Shown here: positions 19,644-19,862 of the stretch, one piece after another
Layout of the letters: each line of letters starts with the position of its first letter
Numbering within the stretch: the stretch's first letter is position 1
Origin: Sphyrna mokarran
Taxonomy: Eukaryota
NCBI GenBank assembly: GCA_024679065.1
Contig: JAGIQG010000021.1
Location: 41,850,001 to 41,914,000, forward strand
Direction of reading: 5' to 3'
DNA length: 64,000 bases
Position numbers and translations under genes: made by a program
Notes under the pieces: generated by a model
The model's input: only the letters and a program-made list of their open reading frames with translations
The model's database searches: none
What the model was told of the DNA's origin: nothing

Positions 19644-19862
19644 TTTAAAAATCATTTTGTTCCTTTTGCGGTTACAAAGCCAGTACGCAGTGTGGACAGG
19701 CAAACTTGAATCCATCTCATTTCTTGCTCCAAAAACGAATTCAAATTCAAATTTAATTCAATTCATGATTGCCATAAGAGAGACATTCAAGATTCAAGCT
19801 GACAAGATCAGGCATTACACTCCATCTTGGGCTCAATCTGACACTTGATCTTAGCCAAAAGG
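19644..19862 (-). mobile_element. U2 snRNA-headed short retroelement (SINEU-like)
   Basis: 19841-19862 reverse complement CCTTTTGGCTAAGATCAAGTGT equals U2 snRNA nt 13-34, followed by ~200 nt non-U2 body and an A-rich end. Confidence 0.7.

Follow-up and report, generated by a model that had tools for sequence, protein, structure and literature searches.

Does a short element headed by a perfect fragment of U2 snRNA, lying beside the 3′ ends of LINEs in a shark genome, belong to a family of snRNA-derived SINEs, or did it arise from a single retroposition event? The element occupies positions 19862 to 19644 on the minus strand of the window (the whole 64-kb stretch of Sphyrna mokarran DNA that was analysed). 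The closest known system is SINEU. In the excerpts of PMC4494074, SINEU elements have U1 or U2 heads, recurrent addition of sequence at the 5′ end, poly(A) tails and targets shared with Tx1-Mar, their tandem copies sandwich a target-site duplication (TSD), and they are reported as not found outside crocodilians. The relevant passages of three reviews (PMC5786205, PMC4758252 and PMC5381603) likewise describe SINEU from crocodilians only.

A U2 head on a diverged U2 body

The head of the element (19862–19841, minus strand) is identical to U2 snRNA nt 13–34 at 22/22 positions, as judged against the Rfam RF00004 consensus and against vertebrate U2 nt 1–75 taken from one figure of PMC4640811 (S1 Fig). 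With both strands, 170 possible U2 22-mers and the base composition of the window taken into account, 1.8e-6 such matches are expected by chance. U2 nt 1–12 are missing from the element: the eight extra AT-rich bases at 19870–19863 (minus strand), which lie between the head and the upstream copy of the flanking duplication, are not U2 nt 1–12 and match model positions 1–12 and the reference poorly by eye. Downstream of the head, a 12-nt linker (19840–19829, minus strand) matches U2 nt 13–22 at 4/10 positions and leads into the body. The whole element measures ~220 nt and closes with an A-rich end (19651–19642) that includes a short, worn A-run at 19647–19642.

The first-pass annotation had correctly recognized the exact head, and described what follows it as a ~200-nt body unrelated to U2. 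That second description has to be abandoned, as the body (19828–19668, minus strand) is itself a diverged, nearly full-length U2 that extends from nt 23 to about nt 172, as traced by matches found by eye together with the Rfam alignment. Specifically, 19828–19793 match U2 nt 23–58 at 26/36 ungapped positions, counted by eye against the U2 references printed in Rfam RF00004 and in excerpts of PMC6136364 and PMC4640811. With these counts entered by hand, the binomial probability of the match is 2e-8 (p=0.27), or 8e-6 after multiplication by 400 positions. U2 nt 59–74 come next as a weaker match with several single-base gaps. Beyond nt 23–58, four further U2 blocks follow in U2 order to about nt 170. 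The later blocks, compared with U2 primers printed in PMC12997089 and PMC12691288, include the Sm site, an 11-nt exact run at 19735–19725 that occurs once in the window; this 11-mer alone is not specific to U2, because it is also present in an engineered U7 oligo in the excerpted part of PMC7141619. They also include an 8-nt exact run at 19718, reached after a 4-nt insertion, a match to probe TM132 at 9/15 positions whose core, at 19697, is exact over 6 nt, and an 8/12 match to U2 nt 155–166, reached after a 5-nt deletion.

The spacing of these blocks is U2-like from the Sm run to the TM132 core (36 versus 38 nt). Between nt 23 and the Sm run it is 77 versus 93 nt, and the excess, a net expansion of 16 nt, consists of an AT-rich micro-repeat at 19770–19737 (minus strand), directly before the Sm site, which would serve to diagnose further copies of any family. 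In the hexamer that pairs with the branch point, two of six positions are changed. The ten differences from U2 in 19828–19793 include four A-to-G and two T-to-C changes, the opposite of the usual C-to-T decay; RNA editing of a master transcript could have produced this bias, although the numbers are small.

On a 401-base segment, the Rfam U2 model scored 15.5 bits (E 0.69, 4227 families), the first of seven matches by E-value, with model positions 1–192 aligned over 19873–19641. The Rfam scan of the whole 64-kb window gave two matches, neither of them to U2, and in scans of the body alone U2 was absent among the matches (four and four). The other Rfam matches (LasI thermometer, mir-509, snoZ30 and others; E 0.9–9) were set aside as chance. 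Folding did not distinguish the element from shuffled sequences (z -0.69), nor did any of the four sub-regions fold better than shuffles, so there is no sign of selection on the U2 stems. By its sequence, the body is evidently U2 by descent, with the U2 structure lost. A functional U2 gene was accordingly rejected, given a score well short of the gathering score of 46, the absence of nt 1–12, the mutated GUAGUA pairing motif and the lost stems, the last two of which mean that the element cannot work as U2. Also rejected was a pol III SINE head, as no tRNA was found in the window and the element had no Rfam match to tRNA, 5S or 7SL.

Probable insertion at a target shared with LINE 3′ ends

The element is flanked by a TSD, a feature that the first-pass annotation had listed as support for a SINE family but did not itself report. 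The upstream copy of this worn duplication of about 18–20 nt (19890–19871, minus strand) is identical to 19639–19622 at 16/20 columns, and the duplication brackets head and body together. Its empirical p value against 10,000 random window segments is 0.007, which amounts to moderate support, and comparison of 19890–19871 with the other two junctions of the cluster reached only p 0.07–0.08. The downstream copy is part of a motif (19643–19622, minus strand) that begins with 13 bases identical (13/13), in register, to 18736–18724. This 13-mer thus follows both the A-run of the U2 element and the end of a LINE (neighbour B), and its two occurrences in the window are both at this locus. The probability of the coincidence is 4.5e-8 at a fixed position and 0.0012 in any register, for a single locus and with the initial 2–3 bases of the 13-mer possibly belonging to the A-tail.

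Continuing along the minus strand, the cluster comprises neighbour A (19621–19482), a short LINE 3′ UTR fragment that can be aligned with the 3′ UTR of neighbour B; a worn copy of the target motif (19481–19453; p 0.008 against the motif at 18736, p 0.013 against that at 19643); neighbour B itself (19452–18737), a 5′-truncated and frameshifted LINE in which a C-terminal remnant of ORF2 with a CX7HX4C motif precedes the 3′ UTR; and, closing the cluster on its outer 3′ side, a further copy of the target motif (18736–18715). The two LINE-like 3′ ends (19540–19465 and 18796–18722) are 76% identical over 76 nt (E 1.4e-8). CX7HX4C is the C-terminal knuckle of L1/Tx1-type ORF2 proteins, and neighbour B is a putative Tx1-type LINE. 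In the protein atlas, a chordate zf-RVT cluster ranked fourth for neighbour B with a score of 0.80, which shuffled proteins frequently attain as well, and Pfam, homolog and PDB searches with this fragment, which has no RT domain, were all blank (5/5). Tx1 elements are described as present in sharks in the excerpted text of PMC8455134.

The tail of the U2 element with its A-run (19673–19644, minus strand) resembles the 3′ end of neighbour A and not clearly that of B. Its last 30 nt gave p 0.001 against the end of A with random window sequence, 0.010 with shuffled sequence and 0.004 with shuffled sequence in which the A-run was kept, in a comparison of AT-rich sequence with boundaries set by the analyst; against the end of B no resemblance was found (p 0.18–0.59). 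Similarity of the whole element to the LINE 3′ UTRs was rejected (p 0.06 for both A and B). The relationship to LINE 3′ UTRs that the first-pass annotation had raised for the body is therefore confined to the last ~30 nt and to neighbour A. Its two other statements on this side of the element stand, namely that an A-rich end lies beside LINE 3′ ends, and that a U2-headed, SINEU-like retroposed unit is tied to them.

Together, the shared 3′ junction and the flanking duplication point to a site-specific LINE as the agent that inserted the element beside the two LINE 3′ ends, with which it forms a tandem. The locus is a real U2-on-U2 retroposed unit within a site-specific LINE pile-up, and we consider it very likely that the U2 element was inserted at the shared target by LINE machinery.

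The DNA that received these insertions gave no credible Pfam family in 6 + 9 frames of the target flanks; matches to DUF1577 (E 1.5e-4) and APP_N (E 0.005) fell below the cut-off and were attributed to chance. Of the 25 longest among 176 pairs, none was conspicuous as a terminal inverted repeat around the target. The target DNA (18300–18736 and 19863–20700, plus strand) reads like decayed coding sequence, with a splice-acceptor-like site near 18555 followed by a Ser/Asp/Glu-rich frame that resumes on the far side of the insertions. Judged by eye, this DNA may be the remnant of a DNA transposon, for which Pfam gave nothing.

Unequal divergence of head and body

Head and body have diverged from U2 to different extents. 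The difference between 22/22 in the head and 26/36 in the body has a Fisher p of 0.009, and that between the head and the non-overlapping body nt 35–58 (16/24) a p of 0.004, in a test that is inflated because the head was chosen for its perfect match. From this unequal identity, the body had most likely already diverged when the head was added. Together with the shared 3′ junction, the flanking duplication, the tail that resembles the end of neighbour A and the likeness to crocodilian SINEU, this makes it reasonably likely that the element is a copy of a non-autonomous, SINEU-like retroposon that belongs to a family, although the window holds a single copy.

A one-off chimeric retrocopy would involve the same LINE machinery acting on RNA from just one diverged U2 pseudogene or U2 variant, with a jump to true U2 and no family behind it. 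It would account no less well for the shared target and for the difference in divergence, it fits the single copy in the 64-kb window, and template-switch snRNA chimeras are known from mammals in the excerpts of PMC4494074. It does, however, presuppose a transcribed U2 that had diverged strongly and already carried a LINE-like tail at its end. Such an RNA would in effect be a SINE master, and masters presumably seldom leave just one copy, which makes a solitary chimera unlikely in our assessment, if well worth weighing.

More doubtful still is an ordinary processed U2 pseudogene that acquired a 5′ duplication by slippage and decayed in place, its head having stayed perfect by luck. The body is indeed U2 throughout, U2 nt 23–34 are present twice in the element (10/12; p 0.024 for this test on its own), and the copies of the flanking duplication differ at 4/20 columns. 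Moreover, copies of the common SINE of the window are 74–86% identical to their consensus (8 aligned of >15 copies), and thus deep in-place decay, almost to the level of the body, is normal in this window. Against such decay, a perfect 22-mer has a probability of 0.0004–0.007 at 70–80% identity (0.10 at 90%), and the final ~30 nt resemble a LINE end rather than plain poly(A).

The first-pass annotation had placed the U2 junction near the insertion position of Keno and had considered that the body might be a Keno 5′ UTR. In the excerpts of PMC4640811 and PMC6136364, the U2 sequence downstream of Keno and Utopia begins at nt 39. An insertion of Keno or Utopia into a U2 gene can hardly be right, even though a U2 5′ fragment adjoins LINE 3′ ends here and Keno is a Tx1-clade element that targets U2 (excerpts of PMC4494074 and PMC6136364), because the head ends at nt 34, the body, which begins again at nt 23, runs through the Keno site at nt 38/39 unbroken, and the LINE ends here are followed by a non-U2 motif and not by U2 nt 39.

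Proposed mechanism of formation

Under the reading that we prefer, a SINEU-like retroposon family, the source would be an old U2 derivative that had drifted from U2, had acquired a LINE-like 3′ end and was transcribed. Its RNA would probably derive from read-through from flanking DNA, without a copied upstream snRNA promoter; read-through appears the likeliest origin because there is no pol III head and the element contains an internal T5 run (19735–19731). Excerpts of PMC4494074 propose read-through transcription for SINEU as well.

A site-specific LINE, probably of the Tx1 clade, would then have supplied the ORF2 protein that copied this RNA through target-primed reverse transcription from an endonuclease nick at the preferred target of that LINE. 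Reverse transcription would have started in the A-tail and continued through the worn U2 body, before a template jump to true U2 snRNA at nt 34 and a stop at nt 13. This jump may have taken place in the master or during the insertion analysed here. Repair would have left the 18–20-nt duplication, which recreates the target. Because every insertion duplicates the target, the same site could be used three times, and three insertions at one regenerated target would yield the tandem of U2 element, LINE end A and LINE end B.

Comparison with SINEU and other snRNA-derived sequences

The features that a single SINEU copy can display are found in the element: a 5′ head from U2 snRNA, a length below 500 bp with a 3′ A-run (short and worn), a TSD from LINE-type insertion (worn) and a target common to the element and LINE B (at one locus). 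As far as one copy can indicate, the element would thus act like SINEU.

The likeness to SINEU-1 and SINEU-2 lies in an older unit extended at its 5′ end by a U1 or U2 fragment, an A tail, a target in common with a LINE (Tx1 in SINEU and probably here) and tandem insertions. The body of SINEU-2 is also derived from U2, but its head is from U1, whereas here a U2 head sits on a near full-length U2 body. SINEU-1 differs in having a non-snRNA 3′ half in place of the U2-derived body. Their target is Mariner-N4; the target here is a motif in DNA in which Pfam recognized no credible family. SINEU-3 consists only of U2 pieces and closes with a brief stretch of unique 3′ sequence, some 40 bp long against some 30 in the element here; it shares a 5′ piece of similar extent, a strong target preference and tandem copies around a TSD. 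It differs by an internal ~50-bp deletion, whereas the shark element retains the central part of U2 and carries nt 23–34 twice.

Keno (Tx1) and Utopia likewise have U2 sequence adjoining LINE ends, with the difference that U2 is their target, joined at the 3′ junction at nt 39 according to the excerpts, and is the cargo here. snRNA retropseudogenes, in the excerpts of PMC2912911, PMC5322556 and PMC4494074, resemble the element in carrying a 3′-truncated U2 5′ piece and a TSD and in being LINE-driven. In their tailless, poly(A) and template-switch chimeric forms they are single-generation copies of true snRNA, as opposed to the differing ages of head and body here.

Copy number and novelty

A search of the 64-kb window with nhmmer recovered one copy of the element. 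As a proxy, one of its six frames (68 aa) was searched against 1.84 billion proteins and gave one match, to an ankyrin (11/25 residues), which was rejected as unrelated. A control with the commonest SINE of the window, run in a different, word-indexed protein search, likewise found nothing, and the blank protein searches therefore carry no weight. In the supplementary files of the whale shark (12 of 24 searched) there were no matches, and the class table was uninformative. No snRNA-derived SINE of a shark or ray was found in the open-access literature; Repbase, Dfam or the shark repeat libraries may hold one.

The element probably adds a new member to the SINEU-type sequences. More tentatively, with chances that we place a little short of even, it could mean that snRNA-derived SINEs arose a second time, in cartilaginous fishes, as an as yet uncatalogued U2 family that takes new heads from true U2 and is carried into a shared target by a site-specific Tx1 element. 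If such a family exists, SINEU would no longer be peculiar to crocodilians but something that Tx1 biology can produce repeatedly, and with a parallel, LINE-tied family elsewhere in vertebrates the connection between Tx1 and snRNA capture could be tested comparatively. Such a family would also offer a second system for testing how promoterless snRNA SINEs are transcribed, a question that the excerpts of PMC4494074 leave open for SINEU, which has no internal promoter. Were the element to be single-copy, it would be an unremarkable U2 retrocopy, yet still a marker of a LINE target hotspot.

Other features of the window

Sarcomeric myosin heavy-chain exons, with P-loop and motor-domain motifs, lie at 900–6300 (minus strand), at least 12 kb from the element; one exon matches Pfam Myosin_head with E 2.7e-4. 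A copy of a tRNA-type SINE that is 78% identical to its consensus and is flanked by a clean 9-nt duplication (19923–19931 and 20233–20241) lies at 19932–20232 (plus strand), with some 60 nt between it and the U2 head, on the upstream side of the head. More than 15 copies related to it are present in the window, and this common SINE is presumably of the HE1/V-SINE type, which, with the putative Tx1-type neighbour B, would fit a chondrichthyan genome.

Also present in the window are long palindromic, MITE-like repeats that form one family and are partly nested, with arms of up to 207 nt at 97% identity (22133–23040, 55458–56137, 7395–7620, 27487–27664, 42330–42479 and 9149–9341); these repeats account for a chance Rfam match to mir-4427 at 7451–7515. 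Old interspersed repeats with 69–76% identity are found at 31212–31530, 31758–32112, 43217–43579 and 49731–49952, and as the pairs 34843–35334 and 38592–39065, and 48498–49085 and 50188–50688.
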